Source of the DNA: a virus
Lineage: Duplodnaviria > Heunggongvirae > Uroviricota > Caudoviricetes
IMG/VR virus record: IMGVR_UViG_2671181134_000015
Length of the DNA stretch: 38,518 nt
Reading direction: 5' to 3' (one strand)
The translations under genes were made by a program, and so were the position numbers. Within the stretch, counting starts at the first letter, position 1, and each line of letters starts with the position of its first letter. This document shows, piece after piece, positions 3,904 to 31,306 of this stretch. The notes under the pieces were generated by a model that worked only from the letters and a program-made list of their open reading frames with translations, was not told where the DNA came from and made no database searches.

Positions 3904-5091
3904 ATGGCTGAAACCCGTTTCCATGGCGTGCGGGTCCGGGAGAATGCGGATCTGGTCACGGCCATTAATGATATTGACTCCAGTGTGATTGGTATCGTGG
4001 CTGTTGCTGATGATGCTGATGCAAAAACATTTCCGCTGGATAAGCCGGTGCTCCTGACGCGTGTCATGGATGTGCTGGGTAAGGCCGGAAAAACCGGCAC
4101 GCTGTATAAAAGTCTGAAAGCTATTGCCGATCAGGTCAGCACCAGAGTTGTTGTGGTGCGGGTTGCTGCTGCGAAGGAGGGGGATGGTCAGCCGACACAA
4201 ACGCAGCTTGTTATTGGTGAGGTCAAAAATGACGGAACCTATACAGGCATGCAGGCGCTCCTGGTGGCTGAACAGAATGAGGCTGTTGGTGTTCGTCCCA
4301 GGATCCTGGCCGTGCCATCGCTTGACACCAAAGAGGTGGTGGCGGCACTGGTAACCGTCGCGAAAAAGCTGCGTGCCTTTGTGTATGCGGGCTGTCCCGG
4401 CTGTAATACCGTGCAGGAGGCTGTCACCTGGCGCGCCGATCTTGCTCACCGTGAAGTTATGCTGATCTGGCCTGATTTTATCGCGTACAACCCTAACAGT
4501 GGCCAGAATGAGGCTTTTCCTGCATCTGCGTATGCGTGCGGGTTGCGTGCGAAGATTGACCACGAGCAGGGCTGGCATAAATCCCTGTCCAATGTGGCAG
4601 TGAATAATGTCCTGGGTATTTCTGTGCCGGTGTTCTGGTCGCTCCAGGCAGAGGACAGTGACGCGGAAACCCTCAATGACAAGGAGATCACCACACTCAT
4701 TAAACGTAACGGCTTCCGTTTCTGGGGTAACCGGACTCTCGACACCACTACCTACACCTTTGAGACCTACACGCGTACGGCGCAGTCGCTGGCGGATACC
4801 ATCGCCGAATCGCAGTTTGAAACCGTGGACAAGCCGCTGACGCCGTCGAACGTGAAGGATGTGTTAAGCGATATCCGGGCAAAACTGAGTGCCTTTGTGA
4901 CAGCGGGTAAACTTATCGGGGCAGAGTGCTGGTATGACGTGGTGGATAACGGCACAACGGATCTGCGTCAGGGGGTTGTGCGCATTCGCTACAAGTATAC
5001 GCCGGTGCCACCGCTTGAAGATCTTGAGCTTCACCAGACGTTTACCGATGAATTCTTTGCGGGTGCATTTGCATCACTGGGAGGTGAGTAA
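3904..5091 (+). CDS. Contractile tail sheath protein (P2 gpFI-like)
   Basis: TFPLDKPVLLTRV, QGWHKSLSNV, GFRFWGNRT and YTPVPPLE match recalled P2 FI; start at MAETRF. Confidence 0.9.
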   Translation: MAETRFHGVRVRENADLVTAINDIDSSVIGIVAVADDADAKTFPLDKPVLLTRVMDVLGKAGKTGTLYKSLKAIADQVSTRVVVVRVAAAKEGDGQPTQTQLVIGEVKNDGTYTGMQALLVAEQNEAVGVRPRILAVPSLDTKEVVAALVTVAKKLRAFVYAGCPGCNTVQEAVTWRADLAHREVMLIWPDFIAYNPNSGQNEAFPASAYACGLRAKIDHEQGWHKSLSNVAVNNVLGISVPVFWSLQAEDSDAETLNDKEITTLIKRNGFRFWGNRTLDTTTYTFETYTRTAQSLADTIAESQFETVDKPLTPSNVKDVLSDIRAKLSAFVTAGKLIGAECWYDVVDNGTTDLRQGVVRIRYKYTPVPPLEDLELHQTFTDEFFAGAFASLGGE

Positions 5092-5600
5092 TGGCGGTAC
5101 CAAACAAACTTCGCGTTTTCACGGTGTACATCGATGGCGAAAACAAGCTGGGGCGGGTGACGTCCTTCACGTCGCCTAAACTGACCCGAAAAACGGAGTC
5201 CTTCCGTGGTGCCGGGATGCCCGGCAGTGTTTCCGTCGACTTTGGTCTTGATGATGGTGCACTGGATCTCTCTTTTGCGGTAGGCGGCGCAGATGCCCAC
5301 CTTTTCTCCCGTTATGCCGGGTCACTTGATGAAGTCCGTCTTCGCTTTTCCGGTGAGTACTATTCGGATGCGGATATCAGATATGTGGATATTGAGGTCC
5401 GTGGGCGCATCACTGAAATCGATATGGGGGAGGCGAAGCAGGGTGAAGACACTGAGCACAGTTATTCGATGAAAAACACCTGGTACAGACTGAGCGTGGA
5501 TGATCGGGAAAAAATCGAATTTGATGTGCTGAATTTTATCTGGCGCATTGACGGTAAGGATGTGCTGCCGGATCGCACCCGCTCGATGCTGGGCTTCTGA
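5091..5600 (+). CDS. Tail tube protein (P2 gpFII-like)
   Basis: 169 aa immediately after FI with TAATG stop-start overlap; size and position as P2 FII. Confidence 0.85.
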   Translation: MAVPNKLRVFTVYIDGENKLGRVTSFTSPKLTRKTESFRGAGMPGSVSVDFGLDDGALDLSFAVGGADAHLFSRYAGSLDEVRLRFSGEYYSDADIRYVDIEVRGRITEIDMGEAKQGEDTEHSYSMKNTWYRLSVDDREKIEFDVLNFIWRIDGKDVLPDRTRSMLGF

Positions 5601-5647
5601 TGATGGTTTAACAGAGAACGGCGGGGATCCCGCCGTGGAGACTGAAA

Positions 5648-6037
5648 ATGGATAAAGAAACGGAAATGACCACTGACACTGCCGTCAGTAACGGGGAGGC
5701 TTCCGCGGTGGCGGTTGCCGCTACGGCTGCACCTAAGAACGTGGTGAAGCTGACGGTGCCTGTTGTGCGCGGAGATGTGTCGTACAGTGAAATTAAAATC
5801 GGTCCGCTGGCGAATCAGGCCGGATCGCTGCGTGGGCTGTCTTTGCTTGCGCTTTACAACATGAACTGTGATGCCATGGTCACCTGGCTTGCGCGTGTGA
5901 CAGAGCCAAAACTCAAGGAGGCCGAAATGTATGCCATGAATGTGGCGGATTTTACGGCGCTGAGCTCGGCGGCGGTTAATTTTTTCGCACCCTCGGGGTC
6001 GAATGCACCGGCACCGGAGAACACGGCAGAGCCGTAA
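5648..6037 (+). CDS. Tail assembly chaperone gpE-like (zero-frame product)
   Basis: Position between tail tube and tape measure; slippery heptamer near its 3' end (see 5980-5986). Confidence 0.7.
   Translation: MDKETEMTTDTAVSNGEASAVAVAATAAPKNVVKLTVPVVRGDVSYSEIKIGPLANQAGSLRGLSLLALYNMNCDAMVTWLARVTEPKLKEAEMYAMNVADFTALSSAAVNFFAPSGSNAPAPENTAEP
5980..5986 (+). other. Slippery heptamer T TTT TTC for programmed -1 frameshift giving the E+E' fusion chaperone (extension open to TAA at 6193-6195)
   Basis: X XXY YYZ site in the E frame; the -1 frame is open from 5986 to 6195 and overlaps the tape-measure start, as in the P2 E/E' and lambda G/GT arrangement. Confidence 0.55.
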
Positions 6038-22302: not shown

Positions 22303-22374
22303 GGAAATTCTCCATAACCTGGTCGTTTTTCCCATGATGGCGGCAGATAACGGTGTGTCTCAAGGTGCTGAAGT

Positions 22375-22392
22375 TGTATGGCGACGGGGACA
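22375..22392. promoter_or_regulatory. TGT-N12-ACA dyad (Ogr-type late-promoter activator site) in the divergent O/P intergenic region
   Basis: Exact TGTATGGCGACGGGGACA; centred about 55-65 bp from the proposed O (22302) and P (22458) start codons. Confidence 0.4.
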
Positions 22393-22457
22393 ACACGGGC
22401 AAGTATCAGGCGGTATTGCTGAGGCTTAATCTTGCCCTGTTAATGTCAGGGGGTGCA

Positions 22458-24191
22458 ATGATCCAGGATGTCTTTATTCGTATGCGGGCGAAACAGCTTT
22501 ACTGGCAGGGGTATACCCCGGCGGATATCGCTCAGCTGATGGGAATAAACCAGAACACGATTTATTCGTGGAAAAAACGCGATGAGTGGGATGCCACCCC
22601 CCCGATCCAGCGGGTCACCCAGTCCATTGATGCACGCCTGATACAGCTCACCGCCAAACCGGATAAAAGCGGCGGTGACTTTAAGGAAATTGACCTGCTG
22701 ACGCGCCAGCTGAAAAAACTGAATGACGGTCAGGGAGAACAGGCTGTTTCCGGTAAGAAGCCCCGCAGGCGCAAACTGAAAAATCACTTCACCGAAGAGC
22801 AGATTGTCGCACTCAGGGAAAAAATCCTGCCGTCACTGGCCTGGCATCAGCGCGAATGGTACGACAACCGCCATCACCGCAACCGCATGATCCTGAAGTC
22901 GCGTCAGATTGGTGCGACCTGGTATTTTGCGCGCGAAGCACTCCTTGATGCACTGCGTGATGATGTCTCCGCCGGGTACCAGCGCAACCAGATATTTTTG
23001 TCCGCATCCCGTCGCCAGGCGTATCAGTTCAAACACTTTATTCAGCAGGCGGCGCTGGAAGTTGATGTCGAACTGAAAGGGGGTGACAAGATTGTTTTGT
23101 CTAACGGTGCAGAGCTTCACTTCCTTGGCACATCGGCAGCAACCGCTCAGTCGTATACCGGACACCTTAAATTTGATGAATTTTTCTGGGTCAGTAATTT
23201 TGTGCAGTTGCGAAAGGTGGCTGGCGCAATGGCAACCCTGAAAGGCCTTACCCGTACCTACTTTTCAACGCCATCGGGTGAAACGCATGAAGCTTATCAG
23301 TTCTGGACGGGGGATCGCTGGAACAGTGAGCGTCCCCGCTCAAAACGCACTGAATTCGATGTGTCTCATTCGAACCTGAAAGGGGGCGTGCTCTTCCCGG
23401 ATAAAACATGGCGGCAGATTGTCACCATTGAGGATGCAGTCGCGAACGGGTGGGAATATACGAGCATTGACGATATCCGGGATGAAAACACCGAAAGCGA
23501 ATTTCGTAACCTGTACATGTGCGAGTTCGTGCGTGATGGCGAGGCGGCGTTCAGTCTGAATGCGCTGATCGGCTGTGGTGTGGATGGATACGACGAATGG
23601 CCTGACTGGAAACCTTTTGCTGCGCGTCCGATGGGCGTGCGGGAAGTCTGGCTCGGGTACGACGCCAACGGCAGCAGCGGGAAGGGGGACTGCGGGGCGC
23701 TGTCGGTCTGCGTACCTCCACGGGTTACAGGCGGTCGTTTTCGTACCGTGGAGACGGTCAGGGTGCAGGGTATGGAGTTTGAACAGCAGGCGGCCCTGAT
23801 TGAGGAATACACCCAAAAATATAACGTGAAACATATCGGCATTGATGTGACCGGCGGGAACGGGGAGGGGGTTTATCAGATTGTGAAAAAGTTTTTCCCG
23901 ATGGCCGTACCGTACAACTTCAATATCGCCTCCAAGCGGGCACTGGTCATGAAAATGCTTCAGGTGGTGCGTGCCGGACGCTGGGAGTATGACCGCAGTG
24001 AACGTGACCTGATCCAGGCATTCGCATCGGTGCGAAAAATACAGACACCCGGCGGCTATATCACCTATGACACCGACCGCTCCCGCGGTGTGAGTCATGG
24101 GGATCTTGCCTGGGCAACCATGCTTGCTGTTATCAATGAGCCAATTGGTGCGGAGCGTGAGGATAATCGCGGCTTTGCAATGGAGTTCTGA
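22458..24191 (+). CDS. Terminase large (ATPase) subunit gpP-like
   Basis: N-terminal HTH LYWQGYTPADIAQLMGINQNTIYSWKK typical of gpP; about 577 aa from MIQDV with AGGGGG RBS; the ORF track begins at a GTG at 22353 that lies inside the promoter region. Confidence 0.85.
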   Translation: MIQDVFIRMRAKQLYWQGYTPADIAQLMGINQNTIYSWKKRDEWDATPPIQRVTQSIDARLIQLTAKPDKSGGDFKEIDLLTRQLKKLNDGQGEQAVSGKKPRRRKLKNHFTEEQIVALREKILPSLAWHQREWYDNRHHRNRMILKSRQIGATWYFAREALLDALRDDVSAGYQRNQIFLSASRRQAYQFKHFIQQAALEVDVELKGGDKIVLSNGAELHFLGTSAATAQSYTGHLKFDEFFWVSNFVQLRKVAGAMATLKGLTRTYFSTPSGETHEAYQFWTGDRWNSERPRSKRTEFDVSHSNLKGGVLFPDKTWRQIVTIEDAVANGWEYTSIDDIRDENTESEFRNLYMCEFVRDGEAAFSLNALIGCGVDGYDEWPDWKPFAARPMGVREVWLGYDANGSSGKGDCGALSVCVPPRVTGGRFRTVETVRVQGMEFEQQAALIEEYTQKYNVKHIGIDVTGGNGEGVYQIVKKFFPMAVPYNFNIASKRALVMKMLQVVRAGRWEYDRSERDLIQAFASVRKIQTPGGYITYDTDRSRGVSHGDLAWATMLAVINEPIGAEREDNRGFAMEF

Positions 24192-24196
24192 ACACA

Positions 24197-25240
24197 ATGA
24201 GTAAACGCAAAAAATACACCGGAAAGCGGGGGCAGGATTCGCTACACGATGCACTGAAATCAACGCCTGCACTCAGCGCATTCACCTTTGATGGGCCCTA
24301 TGAAGTCAGCCGCATGGATCTCCTGGATAACATGTCATGTGCAGATAACGGGCGCTACTTTGATACCCCCATGGACTGGAACGCTATCGCCCGTGCATCC
24401 CGTCGTGCGTCCTGGCATCAGTCGGCTTTGTACTTCAAGCGCAACGCCCTGAACGGGTGCTTTGTTCCTCACCCTCTGCTGTCCCGCCAGGCGTTTTCAG
24501 CCTTTGCGCTCGACTGGTTTGTGTTTGGTAATGCCTATCTTGAAGTGCGGCGTAACAGGCTGGGGGAACCACTCCTGCTTCGCCCGGCACTGGCAAAATA
24601 TACACGCAGGGGAAGTGACCTGGATACCTACTGGTATCTCAACGACGACGGTACGGAGTTCAGTTTCAGGAAAGGGACTGTGTGCCACGTGCTTAATCCT
24701 GATATTAATCAGGAGATCTACGGGATGCCGGAATATATCGGCGGGTTGCTGTCTGTCAGCCTGTCAAACTCAGCGGATACATTCCGCAAGCTCTACTACG
24801 ATAACGGCTCGCATGCCGGGTGTATTATCTATGTAGGCACACCTCAGGCGAATGCGGAAAGTGTCGAGGCCATTAAAAAAACGCTTACGGATTCCCGTGG
24901 TCGCGGGGCGTTTAAAAACCTGTTTCTTCATGCGCCGGGTGGTGGCAAGGATGGTGTGCAAATACTGCCGTTCCAGCAGATAACCGCAAAGGATGAATTC
25001 CTGAACATCAAGGGGAGCGCCCGCGACGATATCCTTGCTGCCCATCGTGTACCACCTCAACTGATGGGGGCAATGCCTGACGGGAATGCGGCGTTTGGTG
25101 ACGTTGAGAAAGCGGCGAGGGTGTTTTTCATCAACGAGTTGCAACCTGTCATGGAGGCCATGAAGCATGTCAATGAATGGCTTGGCGTTGAGGTGATGCG
25201 CTTTAACCCCTATGCCCTGCTTCTGGATAACGCCAGCTGA
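24197..25240 (+). CDS. Portal protein gpQ-like
   Basis: 347 aa immediately after P; size as P2 Q. Confidence 0.85.
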   Translation: MSKRKKYTGKRGQDSLHDALKSTPALSAFTFDGPYEVSRMDLLDNMSCADNGRYFDTPMDWNAIARASRRASWHQSALYFKRNALNGCFVPHPLLSRQAFSAFALDWFVFGNAYLEVRRNRLGEPLLLRPALAKYTRRGSDLDTYWYLNDDGTEFSFRKGTVCHVLNPDINQEIYGMPEYIGGLLSVSLSNSADTFRKLYYDNGSHAGCIIYVGTPQANAESVEAIKKTLTDSRGRGAFKNLFLHAPGGGKDGVQILPFQQITAKDEFLNIKGSARDDILAAHRVPPQLMGAMPDGNAAFGDVEKAARVFFINELQPVMEAMKHVNEWLGVEVMRFNPYALLLDNAS

Positions 25241-25305: not shown

Positions 25306-25809
25306 TTAACGGAATGCGGATGGCGTTCTTCTTTGCAGCTTGCTGATAATATGCATCTTCATACTGTTTACTATCGGCAGCCATTCCCTGTCACCGTCTC
25401 CGTTGATGACCACGCGAATGGAGGTATCATCTTCCACGCGAACCCGAAGAGATACACCGTCTTTTCCGACGGAATGTAACTCCATTGCCAGGACTATGTT
25501 TACCGACTCTCCTTCATCGTGTGAGTCAACCCATGTTCTTACAGCCATCCGGAATATGTTATCTGTGTCGGTTGCAATCATATTTACCGGAAATGGCCTG
25601 AAGTCCCGATCGTTTCTGCACGGAAACCCCGTATCAACGTAACGATGATGCTCGCCGTCTTTGTCTTCCCATGTCTCTGAAGGCAATTCCAGCCACTGCT
25701 CATAAAAAGCAACCAGCTTTTCAGCCTGATTGCGCAGAATCCCTGTAACCTCCCGCCTCGCGTCCCGGCTCTTTTTGTTTGCCAGGTACAAATCGCGAAA
25801 ATGGCTCAT
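25306..25809 (-). CDS. Hypothetical protein (167 aa) in the accessory region between the portal gene and the early region
   Basis: Long ORF; no family recognised. Confidence 0.45.
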   Translation of the reverse strand: MSHFRDLYLANKKSRDARREVTGILRNQAEKLVAFYEQWLELPSETWEDKDGEHHRYVDTGFPCRNDRDFRPFPVNMIATDTDNIFRMAVRTWVDSHDEGESVNIVLAMELHSVGKDGVSLRVRVEDDTSIRVVINGDGDREWLPIVNSMKMHIISKLQRRTPSAFR

Positions 25810-26429
25810 GTCGCTCTCCTTTGGTCTGTTTATGCCAGCCTGTATTCTGCGCTCACCTCATATTGTGCGCAAGTTTTCACCCGTGAATGACTGATACTTT
25901 AAATTCTATTAACTTTATGATTTCAGTGATTTTTGTCTCTCTTTTTTATCCCGTTCGTCACGTCCGTTTCCCTCCCGATCTCCGACCTCGCCAGACGCAA
26001 TCAGACGCATTCTGACGGCCTGTTTCCCTGACCATGTTTTGATGTGGTTTTTCAAAACTGGCTTCACTGCGCGCGTATCACGCGCAATACGACCCCAAAT
26101 AAAGCAACCTGCCTTCCACCCCTCAATTCGGGCGCCCTTCCCTCGTCGCCTGCGCGCTGCAATTGCCTCGTTTTTCGTGCACCGTGCAAAGTGGCTTCAG
26201 CCCGCGCCGTTACTGGGCTGAGTGGGGATGAAACACATAAGAAAAATTGTGCAATTTCGTGCACTTTTGTGCAGTTTGAAACGGGTATCTGTTTGACACT
26301 GGTACTTACTTTGCGCTAACTTTACTCGACCAGAAATTTCAATGAATCGGATGAGGTTGTTTGTCATACGACCTCGGTTAGCTAGGTTGCCTTAATCAAA
26401 AGGCATGTTTGATACTGGAGGAGGTTAAT

Positions 26430-26465
26430 ATGAATAAAGCATTTGACGAATTTGATGGATTCTGA
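26430..26465 (+). CDS. 11-codon mini-ORF (MNKAFDEFDGF) with strong Shine-Dalgarno; candidate leader peptide
   Basis: GGAGGAGG at 26417-26424, 5 nt before ATG; followed 9 nt later by an intrinsic terminator. Confidence 0.3.
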   Translation: MNKAFDEFDGF

Positions 26466-26473
26466 ATGTGTTA

Positions 26474-26502
26474 ACCTCGATAAGGCGGAGACTGATCTCC
26501 GC
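26474..26502 (+). terminator. Intrinsic terminator (GGCGGAG-ACTGAT-CTCCGCC plus T6ATT) immediately upstream of the 26524 ORF
   Basis: Perfect 7-bp GC-rich stem with T-run; lies between the mini-ORF and the downstream gene start. Confidence 0.55.
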
Positions 26503-26523
26503 CTTTTTTATTGGTAAAGAAAT

Positions 26524-27027
26524 ATGGCTATGGACTCAGTAACGATACAAATCATTAGCAATATGATAGTCCTGTTTGGTGTCATTGTTGCTATCTGTAC
26601 AATTATCTATAACGTTCGTACGGCAAAAAAAACACAAACCGCTAATTTTTTATTTGAAAGTCGCCAGGATAAGGAATACCTGGAATCATTACATCTCCTC
26701 AGGAGAATTCATCGCTCAGGGAAATCGTTTCGTGCTTATGTTTTTCCTTGTGAAGGCGGGGCTATTACGGAAGAGGAGATGACCGAACGTCGCAAGTTTC
26801 AGTACATTCTTAACTTTTACGAGAGAGTTGCAGTTAGTATCCGTGAAGGTATTTATGATGAAAGGATGATCAAACGAACGTCCTTTACAACGATTATTAC
26901 AACTTATGATATTGCAGAACCCCTGATTAAGGCTATCAGAGAAGATACTCAATCAAAAACAGCGTACCAGGAGTTTGAATGGCTGGTAAAACGATGGAAA
27001 GCTCGTCCTCTTGATAGGGATGTGTAG
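26524..27027 (+). CDS. AT-rich gene for a 167-aa protein with one N-terminal transmembrane anchor; candidate accessory or defence effector
   Basis: Hydrophobic helix TIQIISNMIVLFGVIVAICTIIY then basic RTAKK; clearly more AT-rich than the flanking phage genes by eye; opposite orientation to the early operon; position equivalent to P2 tin/old. Confidence 0.55.
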   Translation: MAMDSVTIQIISNMIVLFGVIVAICTIIYNVRTAKKTQTANFLFESRQDKEYLESLHLLRRIHRSGKSFRAYVFPCEGGAITEEEMTERRKFQYILNFYERVAVSIREGIYDERMIKRTSFTTIITTYDIAEPLIKAIREDTQSKTAYQEFEWLVKRWKARPLDRDV

Positions 27028-27042
27028 TTTATTTCTTGCATT

Positions 27043-27076
27043 AGAGCGAGGTTATTGGTGCCTCGCTCTTTAAATT
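27043..27076 (+). terminator. Hairpin (AGAGCGAGG-N9-CCTCGCTCT) between convergent genes
   Basis: 9-bp perfect stem followed by TTTAAATT; 16 nt after the stop of the 26524-27027 gene. Confidence 0.4.
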
Positions 27077-27392
27077 ATCGAGCCGTTCTTGCGCTCATGA
27101 TGCTTTGCGCCAGCAACTGCCAGCCCTCTTTCTGTTGCCCGCGCTTGTCCTGATACCTGTTTACCTGCAAGTTTCCGTGCACCAGAATCAGATCGCCTTT
27201 TCTGTGTTTTGCCAGTTCTTCGTGCTGCTTCCCGAATGCAATAAGGTAAAGCCACATTGTGGTTGGCTGTTCTGCGCCATGGCAGGGTAGTGATACCGCC
27301 AGTTGTGCCGTTGTGACGTTGGTTCCTTTGGTTGTTCTCCTTGTGTTCGGGTCTGCTGCCAGTCGTCCCTCTGTTGCAACCTGTGTTGGCAT
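27075..27392 (-). CDS. Short SSB-like OB-fold protein (putative single-stranded DNA-binding protein)
   Basis: EGRLAADPNTRRTTKGTNVTTAQLAV and later blocks follow the SSB OB-fold pattern; lacks the acidic C-terminal tail. Confidence 0.45.
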   Translation of the reverse strand: MPTQVATEGRLAADPNTRRTTKGTNVTTAQLAVSLPCHGAEQPTTMWLYLIAFGKQHEELAKHRKGDLILVHGNLQVNRYQDKRGQQKEGWQLLAQSIMSARTAR

Positions 27393-27978: not shown

Positions 27979-28383
27979 TTACCTGCGTGATTGCCTGCTG
28001 GCGGCCGAATGCACATAGCGGACAATTGCCGCTTTTCGGTTAACGACGGCCAGCGTTCTTGCCAGTTCTTCGTTGAGTTTTCTGGTCTGTTTTTCGTGGT
28101 ATGCCTGCATGATTTTTCCTACGGGAGTCAGTGGTTCAGGCTCTGATATGGCGCGACGAGGGCGCACGGCAACGATGAATGCGCTTCTGTCGGTGTTGAT
28201 TCTTGCAGTCAGGATGTCGGTCATAACGGTGTCTGTGCTGCGATCGGGACTGGCGATCGTGATTTCCAGTTCGTCGCCTGGCTGCGGTCGAACACTGACG
28301 CCGCTCAGTGTCAGTGCCGGAATGCGTGCGTTCATGATGGTGCTGAAATCATGGCGCTGGAGTACGCAATGGAATCGTGTCAT
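27979..28383 (-). CDS. Hypothetical protein downstream of the replication gene
   Basis: 134-aa ORF overlapping the A stop. Confidence 0.45.
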   Translation of the reverse strand: MTRFHCVLQRHDFSTIMNARIPALTLSGVSVRPQPGDELEITIASPDRSTDTVMTDILTARINTDRSAFIVAVRPRRAISEPEPLTPVGKIMQAYHEKQTRKLNEELARTLAVVNRKAAIVRYVHSAASRQSRR

Positions 28384-30893
28384 GGGTTAACCTCCGGTTG
28401 ATCTGCTGCCACCAGGCTTCGTGATTTTTCATCCCAGTGCACAATCCGCCCGTCAGGCAGGCGAACGCGTGCACCTCTGTGTACGGAAAGTGCTGCGCCA
28501 CTGTGTAGCTCCTCGCCCGTCGTGCTCAGTGCCGACTTGATTACGGTGGTGGTGACGTCAGTCAGCGGCAATGCTGTACGCACATGTATGACGTCATCGG
28601 GCGTGGTGGGGCCGCCGGTTTTCACGGTTTTTGTGTCAGATGGCGCATCTTTCAGCTGCCTGGTGAGTTGTTTTCTCTCTGTGGGGGTCAGTGACCTTAA
28701 CCATTCGCTCAAATCACCTTCCGGGATGGTCAGTTTTTGTTCTTTCCTGGTTTCCGGTGGTGGGGTTTTACCCTCTCCGGTGTCTGTTTTTTCATCATGG
28801 GGACAGTTATTGCCACGAGTCCAAGGTGCGGCAAAGCCGCACTCAACGTCAAAACCCTCGTCCGTGCTGTTGTCGGCTTTCGCTTCTTTTCTGACCAGTT
28901 TCCACTCGTCCGGATGGGTACAGATGGTGTAGCGCTCGCCGAGCGACGGGGCGCAAATTCCGTAGATGCGCTGCGGGAATTCGCCGTAGTCGTTGGCCTC
29001 ATCTGCGGTTTCGTATGCGGTGCGGACCAGGTACGCGTTGCGGGGAATGAGCACGCCACCCTGGCGGGTGATGTAGGTGGCAAAACACCCCACGTCAGCA
29101 GCGGCCAGAATGGCGTCAATGTCGTCATGATCCAGGCGCTTCGGTGATGCCGGGTTGCGCTCCATCTGTCCGGCAAGGCGGCGGAGTTCACGCCACACCT
29201 GGCGGGGCGGGATGCCGAAGAACTGGAACTGACGGATGCGATGGAGACTCGCCCAGGCAATGGCGTTTTCCACGGTTTCGGCCATGGTTTTCCCTGATTC
29301 CTCATCGGCGTAAGGTTTGCCGGTTTTCGGGTCATTGTCGTGAAAGGCGCTGGCGTCCAGGTTCTTGCCGATATAGGTTGCGATGTAACTTGCCGGTGTG
29401 CCTTTTGCCGGGTCGATTTTTTCGCACTTGAAGCGCGGCGAAATATCATCCCCCAGTTCTGCGCGATCTGATTTGACTGCCGCGTCACGCATGATTGCAA
29501 TGATGCGTTCTTCATTGTCCGGGGAGGTGAATACCAGCATGTGCCAGTGCGGTGTGCCGTCATGGTGTGGCTCAACGGTGCGCACCCCGTACCAGCTCAG
29601 GCCTTCTTTGTTGAGTTTTTTTCTTACAGCTGCAAAGACGTCGTACACCAGATAATCGCTGGCATCGCGCACGGTGGCACCGTTGTATTTCGGGTTCAGG
29701 CTGCCGTCCTCGTTTACGCTGTGAAAGCGGGAAGGGCAGGTCACTGTCACGAAGAACGCGGAGTCACCACGCGATTCGGCGACCTGTTCCATCCCTCTGA
29801 CGCAGGCCATCATCTCGTTGCGGCGGTTGCGCGGATTCCCCAGCCCTGACCAGTACACGTCCTCCAGACTCAGGCGTTCACCGTCTTCGTTTTCAATGTC
29901 CCAGCTTTTGAGAAAATCACGGGTGCGTTGGCGTTTCTCCCGGAATTCCTGGAGTGACTCATGGCTGATGTAGGGGGATGCCCTGCGCGATACTCTTCCG
30001 GCGGCACGCAGTAATTCCTCCCGCCAGAGATCGGCGAGGTGGCGCAGCTGGTTGTTCCACCAGGTGGCGCAGGTGATGCGCATTACTGCACCCGGTACCC
30101 GTTCAGGGTCTGGTGCCGTGCGGCGGTCACGTCTGAGCTCGAGTGACGGCCAGCATGGTGGGGTCACGCCCAGTTTTAACGCCATGCGCGCCAGCTGCTG
30201 GTAAGTCAGCAACCAGGTAAACAGGTTATCGTCGCCTTTTCCTGTCCGCTCAGTAACTTCATCACATATGCGTTCCAGTTCGGTGGAAAATGCCGCCGCT
30301 GTTAGTGTGGCAAGGCGCTGAATTTGATCACGGTTGAGTTGTGGCAGCATGAGTAATTCATCAAGGCGATGGCGTGCTGCGGTGGCTTTGAATGCCGTCG
30401 TGGCGAAGCATTCATTCACCTGTTCGATGCGTTTCAGGCGTGTGCGCAGTCCACGGCGAACAAAGTTATCAGCCACGTGTGTATTGTTGTTTTTCACGCC
30501 TTCATGGCGGGCGCTTTGCTGTTTGCGGTTTAAACGCGCCAGATCACGAATGAGCGCGTTGCCAAGAAACGAGGGCAGGGCGCGAAGTTCTGCCATGGCT
30601 TCCGATACCACTGTGGGCGGATTTTCGCGTTTGTGTCTCGCCAGTTTTTCCAGTCTGATCCGGCGCTCTTCGTCGTGGTGAAGATGCGAATTAATTCGCT
30701 TGCCTTCGTCTGTGTTTGTCAGGAAGTCGACGGTCTCTTCATCCAGTCTTGCATCAATGCGAATGTCTTCGTTGATGTAGCTCTGAATGGCCTGGCGTAA
30801 TGCGGTTGGTTGCGCTCTGCCGAACGTTTCAGGATCGATAACCGGTAGCGGGGCGTTCCACGGGTACGCCAGTTGTGCGTTATGGTCGCTCAT
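28380..30893 (-). CDS. Replication initiation endonuclease gpA-like (rolling-circle HUH family)
   Basis: 837 aa; GTPHWHMLVF HUH-type motif; ATGA overlap with the upstream gene. Confidence 0.85.
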   Translation of the reverse strand: MSDHNAQLAYPWNAPLPVIDPETFGRAQPTALRQAIQSYINEDIRIDARLDEETVDFLTNTDEGKRINSHLHHDEERRIRLEKLARHKRENPPTVVSEAMAELRALPSFLGNALIRDLARLNRKQQSARHEGVKNNNTHVADNFVRRGLRTRLKRIEQVNECFATTAFKATAARHRLDELLMLPQLNRDQIQRLATLTAAAFSTELERICDEVTERTGKGDDNLFTWLLTYQQLARMALKLGVTPPCWPSLELRRDRRTAPDPERVPGAVMRITCATWWNNQLRHLADLWREELLRAAGRVSRRASPYISHESLQEFREKRQRTRDFLKSWDIENEDGERLSLEDVYWSGLGNPRNRRNEMMACVRGMEQVAESRGDSAFFVTVTCPSRFHSVNEDGSLNPKYNGATVRDASDYLVYDVFAAVRKKLNKEGLSWYGVRTVEPHHDGTPHWHMLVFTSPDNEERIIAIMRDAAVKSDRAELGDDISPRFKCEKIDPAKGTPASYIATYIGKNLDASAFHDNDPKTGKPYADEESGKTMAETVENAIAWASLHRIRQFQFFGIPPRQVWRELRRLAGQMERNPASPKRLDHDDIDAILAAADVGCFATYITRQGGVLIPRNAYLVRTAYETADEANDYGEFPQRIYGICAPSLGERYTICTHPDEWKLVRKEAKADNSTDEGFDVECGFAAPWTRGNNCPHDEKTDTGEGKTPPPETRKEQKLTIPEGDLSEWLRSLTPTERKQLTRQLKDAPSDTKTVKTGGPTTPDDVIHVRTALPLTDVTTTVIKSALSTTGEELHSGAALSVHRGARVRLPDGRIVHWDEKSRSLVAADQPEVNP

Positions 30894-31306
30894 GCGTCGC
30901 ACTCCCCGGCAGTCGCCGCCTGAAACGCCGCGCGGTACAGCATGAGAAGGCGCTGGTATTCGCCGATAAAACCTTCTGCGGTGTATATACCTTTCACGGC
31001 CACGCTGTGGTTTGTCATTTCCAGAACCAGCGCCATCTCTGATGACGACCAGCTGATGGTGGTGCTGTCGGTGCCGTTGATGTGAAATAAACCCAGTCCA
31101 TCACCATCACCTTTCACGTCCACGCGGTAACGACCGTCAACGGTGAAGGAGAAATCCCCGGATGTGGTGATGCTGCGGGCAGCCTGTTTACAGGCGCGGC
31201 GGTAATAGTCGTGCCAGTCGTTCAGGCGGGAAGCCAGCCGGGGATCCACTGCCCACATCCAGTTAAAAAAATCCTGAATATCTGAAAGTCCCTTAACGCT
31301 CTTCAT
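30890..31306 (-). CDS. Hypothetical protein immediately upstream of gpA
   Basis: 138-aa ORF translationally coupled to A. Confidence 0.45.
   Translation of the reverse strand: MKSVKGLSDIQDFFNWMWAVDPRLASRLNDWHDYYRRACKQAARSITTSGDFSFTVDGRYRVDVKGDGDGLGLFHINGTDSTTISWSSSEMALVLEMTNHSVAVKGIYTAEGFIGEYQRLLMLYRAAFQAATAGECDA

Follow-up and report, generated by a model that had tools for sequence, protein, structure and literature searches.

The type III toxin-antitoxin system ToxIN consists of a promoter, an antidote, a terminator and an effector, in this order, and the terminator sets the excess of the antidote. It provides abortive infection from mobile elements, and phages can escape from it by carrying mimics of the antidote. 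The same order of elements is found in a small cassette of a 38,518-nucleotide stretch of viral DNA (IMG/VR record IMGVR_UViG_2671181134_000015; this whole stretch is called here the window), which is a P2-like (Peduoviridae) prophage of E. coli. In this cassette, a promoter is followed by a micro-ORF (open reading frame) of 11 codons, an intrinsic terminator and a gene coding for a membrane-anchored protein of the DUF4760 family. The roles of antidote and toxin can be assigned to these elements by analogy only. Unlike the antidote of ToxIN, which is a tandem-repeat RNA, the leader of the cassette has no repeats and its conserved element is a peptide; moreover, DUF4760 is not a ToxN/AbiQ RNase.

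While ToxIN offers the closest functional logic, the closest documented architecture is that of mccA-terminator-mccB (Zukher et al. 2014, PMC4231749), in which a promoter, a tiny ORF (7 codons there, 11 in the cassette) and an intergenic terminator are also present. The cassette would resemble this operon as well in that the downstream genes are expressed by read-through only, with an abundant short transcript and a high peptide-to-protein ratio (PMC4231749). However, the sole downstream gene of the cassette codes for DUF4760 and not for an MccB adenylyltransferase, the window leader shows no upstream sequence attenuating the terminator, and its peptide has no known modification or export. Leader-peptide attenuators (trpL, pheL, pyrL) also place a short ORF and a terminator ahead of a gene, and in arrest peptides such as TnaC, SecM and SpeFL the conserved residues adjoin the stop codon, as they do here. 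The cassette differs from both groups in the lack of an antiterminator and of regulatory codon runs, in an unconstrained stop codon and in the occurrence of the same ORF without a downstream target. With respect to its location, it resembles the cargo of the P2 old/tin hotspot: a small, AT-rich, replaceable cassette with its own promoter, situated between the portal and replication genes. The elements of the cassette are:

26278-27069, plus strand: cargo cassette (promoter, leader, micro-ORF, terminator, DUF4760 gene and 3' hairpin), delimited by its junction and GC content
26293-26298, plus strand: -35 hexamer TTGACA, read from the sequence
26317-26322, plus strand: candidate -10 hexamer TAACTT after an 18-nt spacer; weak, 3 of 6 consensus positions
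26353-26375 and 26388-26405, plus strand: two hairpins of the 5' leader, in both the minimum free energy (MFE) and the centroid structures
26417-26424, plus strand: Shine-Dalgarno (SD) sequence GGAGGAGG of the micro-ORF, 5 nt 5' of the ATG at 26430
26430-26465, plus strand: micro-ORF MNKAFDEFDGF, 11 codons plus TGA, supported by conservation in DUF4760 upstream regions
26470-26479, plus strand: anti-SD strand GTTAACCTCG, predicted to pair with 26420-26428 (helix P1 around the micro-ORF)
26482-26511, plus strand: intrinsic terminator with a 10-bp stem, a CTGA loop and a T-run, -16.3 kcal/mol
26524-27027, plus strand: DUF4760 protein, 167 aa (PF15956, phrog_2284)
26551-26607, plus strand: single transmembrane helix, residues 10-28 (Kyte-Doolittle maximum 2.71)
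27043-27069, no strand assigned: 3' hairpin AGAGCGAGG/CCTCGCTCT between the convergent DUF4760 and SSB genes, read from the sequence

The micro-ORF accompanies the DUF4760 family as a whole. A micro-ORF with an acidic/aromatic-Gly-hydrophobic end was present in 61 of 63 distinct regions upstream of DUF4760 genes versus 5 of 3150 mononucleotide shuffles used as controls (0.16%); the criterion was a length of up to 30 codons, an end of the type [GW][FLIVYM]-stop and at least two acidic residues just before it. These regions were gathered by protein homology or by a C-terminal motif of the protein, and hence independently of the peptide. Their sources were loci confirmed by tblastn in genomes and viral contigs, exact-protein look-ups and annotated records, together with a metagenome scan for a DNA pattern of DUF4760's own YQEFExL..RW motif, and they cover Enterobacterales, Vreelandella (33% identity) and metagenomic clades. 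The micro-ORF is kept 5' of DUF4760 even where the proteins share no more than 25-35% identity and where the intergenic architecture differs. The C-termini in the tally were DEFDGF (43), DEYDWF, DEFEGF, DDYDGI, DEFEWV, DENDGF/L, DDDEGL, EGWDGF/Y and TEGGF, to which look-ups beyond the 63 regions added, each followed by a stop codon, MMIKLVKRDDYEGF of Pseudomonas (DDYEGF), MATMYRDEYEGL of locus L267 (DEYEGL) and MQDGFDFI of Cardiobacterium (DGFDFI). One of the two exceptions, L230, carries the variant MNYQDGWDE. In the other, L041, an IS186-type transposase element (4675-5995 of that locus) lies in the loop of the leader terminator and has removed the promoter and the micro-ORF; since the insertion splits the DUF4760 gene from both of them, it represents a natural uncoupling mutant.

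The pattern of substitutions was analysed in 31 distinct leaders. In the last six codons, third positions are free and first and second positions nearly invariant (GAT/GAC 21:10, GAA/GAG 16:15, GAC/GAT 20:11, GGC/GGT/GGA, TTC/TTT 24:6), and amino acids change rarely and then conservatively. The last 4-6 residues ahead of the stop codon are thus kept, while the N-terminal residues and the flanking nucleotides vary freely. Such near-exclusive variation of third positions points to selection on the peptide sequence, and this comparative evidence establishes the micro-ORF as real and under peptide-level selection. Its translation can be deduced from the strong SD and the codon-level conservation. 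That the micro-ORF could be a chance ORF in a structured 5' untranslated region, or part of a small RNA, is effectively refuted by the difference between 61 of 63 regions and 0.16% of shuffles and by the synonymous substitution pattern. Although the leader is structured and its terminator region gave a sub-threshold match to isrP (27.6 versus 45 bits), no Rfam family was found at gathering score, and the leader has no tandem repeats: Tandem Repeats Finder detected none in 26293-26523, the sole repeat being an array of three 10-nt units at 26247-26277, in the backbone.

The downstream protein had been described in the original prediction, made by a model from the sequence alone, as a 167-residue product with one N-terminal transmembrane helix that could be assigned to no family. 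The helix was recovered as a single segment. The protein, however, clearly belongs to Pfam DUF4760 (PF15956; E 2.7e-35, a score of 122 bits where the cut-off is 25, with 2-141 of the 141 model positions covered) and to phrog_2284 (E 2.4e-68), and identical or near-identical proteins are named 'DUF4760 domain-containing protein' in RefSeq. An alternative start is the second ATG, at 26530, which is the choice of the annotation pipeline PGAP in homologues. The net charges of the flanks of the transmembrane segment (-1 on the N-terminal and +2 on the C-terminal side) predict an N-out/C-in topology. The homology search and structure prediction called for by the earlier reading thus identified DUF4760 and gave an all-alpha AlphaFold2 model (67-sequence alignment, pLDDT 88.4), in which a long helix comprising residues 5-48 and including the transmembrane segment is followed by a four-helix cytoplasmic domain. 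The protein has a single domain, a 130-residue helical bundle, and one transmembrane helix. The family comprises 2179 representatives at 50% identity (E <=1e-3), and most of the best 150 of these 2179 are 150-200 aa long. No functional name for DUF4760 was present in any source examined, and no PDB sequence was matched at E <=10 when the whole set was searched with a profile. A possible structural likeness was seen to the EP domain of the plant proteins EDS1, PAD4 and SAG101 (about 10% identity, Foldseek E-values of about 0.6-3), from which DUF4760 differs in having no lipase-like domain, in being membrane-anchored and in its bacterial or phage origin. This likeness, seen in a predicted model, would be one of fold and does not indicate homology.

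DUF4760 genes occur in the P2 hotspot, as isolated chromosomal singletons, as a moron with tail genes on either side in a Morganella siphophage, and singly at the border of a Pseudomonas mobile island with umuDC-type, SRAP and Dam-methylase genes. None of 15 long homologues is a natural fusion of peptide and DUF4760, one of them being a tandem DUF4760 duplication. The most conserved stretch of the protein, YQEFEWL (residues 148-154; 26965-26985 of the window), resembles DEFDGF, DEFEWV and DEYDWF, the Morganella peptide RDEFEWV being an example of this likeness. The residues N97, E100, R139 and W158 of the protein are invariant. It might be speculated that the peptide mimics the YQEFEWL helix of DUF4760.

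We propose that the micro-ORF and the DUF4760 gene form a module, the peptide targeting DUF4760 in trans as a ligand or antidote, and we give this reading a probability of about 0.4. A moderately strong promoter would produce a structured leader with a well-translated 11-residue micro-gene, the functional part of the peptide being presumably its C-terminus, FDEFDGF-COOH. The strong terminator would halt most transcripts, DUF4760 being made only from the read-through fraction and through a weak ribosome-binding site (RBS), which should result in a large excess of peptide over protein. The peptide would bind the cytoplasmic domain in trans as a ligand, most simply as a short-lived antidote or inhibitor, and the module, as cargo of the P2 cos-proximal hotspot, would cause abortive infection or exclusion in the manner of a toxin-antitoxin system. 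Free-standing DEFDGF micro-genes found in other phages (see below) could be orphan copies of the same ligand, and possibly counter-measures. The gene order and the dosage signals (a strong SD for the peptide, a weak RBS and read-through for the protein) match an antidote-first module. Position, composition and single-pass membrane topology are compatible with a possible role in phage exclusion.

The anatomy of the cassette, the family-wide linkage of peptide and DUF4760, the terminator in most loci and the independent spread of the micro-gene are established. Several points weigh against the two-gene module, beginning with the production and stability of the peptide, its binding to the protein, the sign of its effect and any anti-phage role, each of which has to be deduced. 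No defence family of PADLOC-DB 2.0.0 was matched at E <=1, NCBIfam gave no match for the DUF4760 protein, and we know of no toxicity or defence phenotype on record for this family. Peptides of 8-11 residues are normally degraded fast. Co-inheritance in a small cassette could inflate the linkage among close relatives, but not across 25-35% identity. Among the matches listed in the viral scans, stand-alone micro-ORFs outnumber the DUF4760 loci from the same collection, which would be unusual for a dedicated antidote and suggests that the peptide may have another, more general target. Finally, helix P1, in which the SD pairs with AACCTC just past the stop codon, would make the SD of the peptide inaccessible in terminated transcripts, which fits poorly with an excess of peptide. 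P1 is present in the MFE structure of 24 of the 31 distinct leaders and missing from distant leaders. On a MAFFT alignment, in which the helices are misaligned, covariation of P1 and of the terminator was no better than in shuffles; P1 is therefore to be taken as a lineage-specific prediction, obtained by per-sequence folding.

The two genes might also form a precursor and processing pair, in which DUF4760 modifies, anchors or exports the peptide and the terminator provides an excess of substrate, as in microcin C and in operons for ribosomally synthesized and post-translationally modified peptides. The operon logic, with an abundant short and a rare long transcript, is that of mccA-terminator-mccB (PMC4231749), and the conserved C-terminus recalls the C-terminally modified MccA. 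However, no nucleotide-binding, peptidase or transporter signature was found in the helical bundle of DUF4760, no partner enzymes are kept near its gene in the loci inspected, and stand-alone micro-ORFs exist without any processing gene. This explanation seems very improbable.

The intergenic region provides a test of another explanation, namely that the leader acts in cis. Translation of the micro-ORF, possibly with stalling at DEFDGF-stop, would set the output of DUF4760 by attenuation, by ribosome-controlled termination as at mccA or by occlusion of an overlapping start codon, and the peptide itself would have no function. The order promoter, SD, tiny ORF, terminator and gene, with no space for a second promoter, argues for such a leader, and so does the crowding of the conserved residues at the 3' end of the ORF, in the manner of TnaC-type arrest peptides. 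The spacing between stop codon and terminator stem is tightly kept: among the 31 distinct leaders, which are all enterobacterial, 28 have 16-21 nt. The micro-ORF of phiV10-like and T4-like phages is followed within 2-5 nt by a hairpin, which would be covered by a ribosome at the stop codon. A 7-codon ORF at which the ribosome controls termination offers a precedent (PMC4231749).

In the window, the gap between the T-run and the DUF4760 ATG is about 14 nt. The earlier statement that the downstream gene depends on read-through of the terminator is borne out. This terminator was correctly foreseen but was placed at 26474-26502, about 8 nt too far to the left: the stem (AAGGCGGAGA/TCTCCGCCTT) occupies 26482-26491 and 26496-26505, and the T-run reaches 26509. 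A terminator separates micro-ORF and DUF4760 in most loci (Enterobacterales, Vreelandella, Pseudomonas and several metagenomic loci), at the same place and with sequences unrelated to one another, and in these loci the DUF4760 start is close behind the T-run. At least four distant loci have no terminator: in L235 and L250 the two genes overlap (TAATG), and the gap is 3 nt in L236 and 10 nt in L265. In L230 the DUF4760 reading frame opens right behind the micro-ORF stop, and L203 has a gap of about 40 nt with no evident terminator. Since some clades have no terminator, the constant feature is the peptide gene, and the terminator is one of two modes of coupling; two architectures with only the peptide in common are what would be expected of co-produced partners.

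Attenuation was also analysed by constrained folding, in which a 28-nt ribosome footprint was forced to be single-stranded at each of 12 codon positions of the window leader. No antiterminator was found: all 10 terminator pairs were kept in the MFE structure at 12 of 12 positions, and the best structure without the terminator was 13.6 kcal/mol worse. With the stop codon in the A site, the edge of the ribosome remains about 6 nt short of the terminator stem. MNKAFDEFDGF contains a fixed motif instead of a run of regulatory codons. All three stop codons are in use among the micro-ORFs; a bias in stop codons as a sign of release factor-specific arrest was ruled out, as 25 further viral contigs carry TAG. 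The absence of an antiterminator, of regulatory codon runs, of RNA repeats and of an Rfam family does not support classical attenuation, and the leader-peptide attenuation put forward in the original prediction is further called into question by the distant loci without a terminator and by micro-ORFs that are terminal cistrons. A constitutive, leaky terminator is the simplest reading for the window leader. Against a cis-acting leader in general stand also the internal motif duplications of some micropeptides, which are unexpected in an arrest peptide, and the micro-ORFs that are often the last cistron, with a convergent gene or a promoter next and nothing to regulate. For these reasons a purely cis-acting leader, although possible, appears doubtful.

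The micro-ORF is not restricted to DUF4760 loci. A degenerate DNA pattern for DEFDGF-TAA/TGA was found in at least 120 viral contigs, and its TAG version in 25 more; among the matches listed in the TAA/TGA scan, only 15 of 120 copies precede DUF4760. Nearly all listed copies are micro-ORFs of 8-14 codons, and the next ORF lies on the opposite strand in 31 of the 145 copies listed. They are unannotated in all GenBank records inspected. Free-standing sites include:

epsilon15, NC_004775, about 2170-2200: MKDEFDGF, overlapping the stop of the Phage_gp49_66 gene (p50), with a bidirectional terminator and a convergent terL next
TL-2011b, NC_019445, about 11520-11545: free-standing micro-ORF
IMG/VR loci L059-L202: free-standing micro-ORFs

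Among the matches listed, 47 are MHDEFDGF of phiV10/TL-2011b-like podophages, where it lies 5' of terS and is flanked by a 12-bp palindrome on one side and a terminator on the other. In P2-like phages, MTITDEFDGF comes after ogr. In contigs of 117-140 kb, with flanks that gave only short matches to rV5-like records, a promoter-like site comes after MKDEFDGF, and in phages of 100-170 kb an Mre11-like gene comes after MFSLRKFDAEDVDFFDEFDGF. Large virulent phages contain several micro-ORFs in a row (MNDEHPDF, NDEYEKV, MNDEFDGF). Other forms are MYDEFDGF and MNDEFDGF, and the internal duplications mentioned above are those of MFDEFDGFDEFDGF and MKNLNEGWNGFVAMEGWDGF. Many micro-ORFs are translationally coupled to unrelated upstream genes, such as those coding for Phage_gp49_66, a ClpX-type zinc finger or a phosphoesterase.

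Many free-standing copies have no gene to regulate, which makes it more likely that the peptide, or at least the act of translating it, has a function than that the ORF is a gene-specific attenuator. Free-standing copies also argue for an independent micro-gene, according to which xDEFDGF would be a short linear motif for some host or phage protein and DUF4760 would merely share its transcript. We presume some likeness to the free acidic/aromatic C-terminal tails ending in Phe of SSB and T7 gp2.5. The presence of the micro-ORF without DUF4760 in epsilon15/phiV10-like, rV5-like, T4-like and P2-like phages (after ogr in the latter), its copies in a row in large virulent phages and its frequent coupling to unrelated upstream genes agree with this idea. 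However, the retention of the micro-ORF 5' of DUF4760 down to 25-35% identity is hard to explain without a functional tie, and an independent micro-gene is thus considered unlikely. A broader version of the two-gene module, to which we attach a slightly smaller likelihood still, would make xDEFDGF-COOH a widespread class of phage peptides of 8-14 residues and DUF4760 a membrane receptor or effector with an EP fold that is silenced by its cognate peptide, the free-standing copies in epsilon15-, rV5-, T4- and P2-like phages being counter-defence decoys.

The DUF4760 family and its presence in the hotspot were already on record. A literature search on DUF4760, PF15956 and the DEFDGF peptide retrieved no relevant paper, and the micro-ORF partner, the family-wide architecture, the free-standing micro-ORF family and the EP-like fold were not mentioned in the literature searched. 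The micro-ORF provides a first functional handle on a family of more than 2000 clusters at 50% identity that recurs in a validated defence hotspot, and whose apparently obligatory partner is an unannotated micro-gene. It also defines a conserved micro-ORF family, [DE][DE][FYW][DE]G[FL]-stop, in model and environmental phages, below every length threshold for gene calling. If the peptide proved to act in trans, as a ligand or antidote, no smaller protein antidote would be known, and a membrane effector could be switched with a simple, synthesisable tool. If free-standing copies were decoys, an arms race would be taking place through a genetic element of about 30 nt never annotated by gene callers. 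If the EP-like fold were confirmed experimentally, DUF4760 would be, to our knowledge, the first relative of the EDS1-family EP domain outside plants.

Other observations concern the surroundings of the free-standing copies. The genes immediately upstream often code for small zinc-finger or Cys-rich proteins (Ogr/Delta, ClpX C4 finger, phrog_536 regulator and DUF5486; L178_up, L078_up, L067_up, L092_up). The 12-bp palindrome GTGACATGTCAC is directly 5' of the micro-ORF in phiV10-like phages and directly 3' in epsilon15-like phages (L067, L087, L149 and others); because position 1 of the phiV10 record NC_007804 falls inside it, the palindrome may be related to a genome end or to packaging. A second pairing consists of a (N)DEFDGF micro-ORF, 41-46 nt without a terminator and a 174-aa protein (MKKYEYMLMKEALR...), and is found in L072, L077, L078, L082, L084, L104, L110, L139 and other loci. 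It sits 3' of a Plasmid_stab_B (ParR-like) or a ClpX-type zinc-finger gene, and the frame of the motif lacks an ATG where the neighbour is ParR-like. The 174-aa protein had no match in Pfam or PHROG, and its homology with DUF4760 was ruled out (hhalign probability 0.04).

The promoter and leader of the window were largely as described in the original prediction: the perfect -35 TTGACA is read directly at 26293-26298, the leader folds better than shuffles (z -3.1), and GGAGGAGG stands 5 nt 5' of the ATG of the 11-codon ORF at 26430-26465. The layout is not due to chance, since promoter, SD, mini-ORF and terminator are kept together with the DUF4760 gene in dozens of loci. TTGACA or TTGACT is found at an equal relative place in homologous cassettes. 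The candidate -10 TAACTT, which aligns with TAATTT of other cassettes, is missing from the list of the consensus promoter scan because it matches only 3 of 6 positions. Leader hairpins of different sequence are present at the same place in other cassettes, as judged by eye, and GGAGG or GGGGG is kept 5-9 nt 5' of the ATG in Enterobacterales leaders. Right after the T-run, most enterobacterial cassettes keep ATGGATGAAA (columns 108-131 of alignment A4), the window having ATTGGTAAAG; this may be the weak RBS of DUF4760 or have another role. At the other end of the cassette, the consensus terminator scan listed a weaker, overlapping 6-bp site at 27034-27051 and not the hairpin at 27043-27069.

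Most DUF4760 cassette promoters have an inverted repeat, ATTACC-N5-GGTAA(T/C), that overlaps their -10. Relative to the peptide motif, the repeat stands at about -85 to -106 in L006-L055; in L061-L173 it is found at +63. It occurs also just 5' of terS in phiV10-like phages and, overall, in 72 of 181 distinct micro-ORF contexts versus a background of 0.12 per kb. In the GenBank record of epsilon15, its copies at 12-27 and 2931-2947 are annotated as a binding site of the lysogeny repressor. In the window, the promoter contains no more than a degenerate form of this repeat.

The cassette is situated between the portal (gpQ) and replication (gpA) genes, an interval that corresponds to the cos-proximal gpQ-gpA hotspot of P2-like phages (Rousset et al. 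2022, PMC9122126). The genes around it are:

22353-24191: terminase gene
24197-25240: portal gene
25306-25809, minus strand: 167-aa backbone gene (phrog_5091, hypothetical), between the portal and the cos-proximal region
27075-27392, minus strand: SSB gene, OB fold alone, convergent with the DUF4760 gene
28380-30902, minus strand: gpA-type replication endonuclease gene

A gene for a MarR-like regulator lies between the SSB and endonuclease genes. The SSB homologue (105 aa; PF00436, E 6e-15) has no acidic C-terminal tail, and the phrog_5091 backbone gene is kept in sister prophages. The cassette measures about 750 bp. Its GC content is 36-41% across 26250-27000 versus 50-57% in the flanks, and the region is present at 99.9% identity in two complete E. 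coli genomes. Over 26200-26277, further P2-like prophages of E. coli are 91-95% identical; they then diverge, which places the left junction at about 26278. Sister E. coli prophages have an unrelated 178-aa gene at this position, and the Citrobacter phage Shae_phiSM and E. coli no107 share the cassette over 26242-27027 (82% identity) in a different backbone context, with parMR as neighbour instead of SSB. The replacement by an unrelated gene and the presence of the same cassette in another backbone indicate a mobile, replaceable unit, in agreement with the earlier view of an AT-rich, self-contained cargo at the equivalent of the P2 old/tin hotspot.

In the text of Table S5A of Rousset et al., DUF4760 arrangements are listed 197 times, for instance as DUF4760+StbA+Plasmid_stab_B, and the term DUF4760 is absent from the supplementary files of cloned systems; the gpQ-gpA hotspot also holds non-defence cargo, such as partition systems and cytolethal distending toxin (CDT) (PMC9122126). 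The 178-aa alternative cargo (WP_000801013.1; 4156-4692 of L004, E. coli STEC2018-607, and 16 other E. coli genomes) had no match in Pfam or PADLOC searches. A search for the P2 cos sequence, allowing up to 3 mismatches, gave no match. Just 5' of the cassette junction, at 26247-26277, there are three 10-nt repeats TTGTGCAATT together with the inverted repeat GTGCA-N6-TGCAC. These repeats, which are kept in P2-like backbones whatever the cargo, are probably a cos-proximal element of the backbone.

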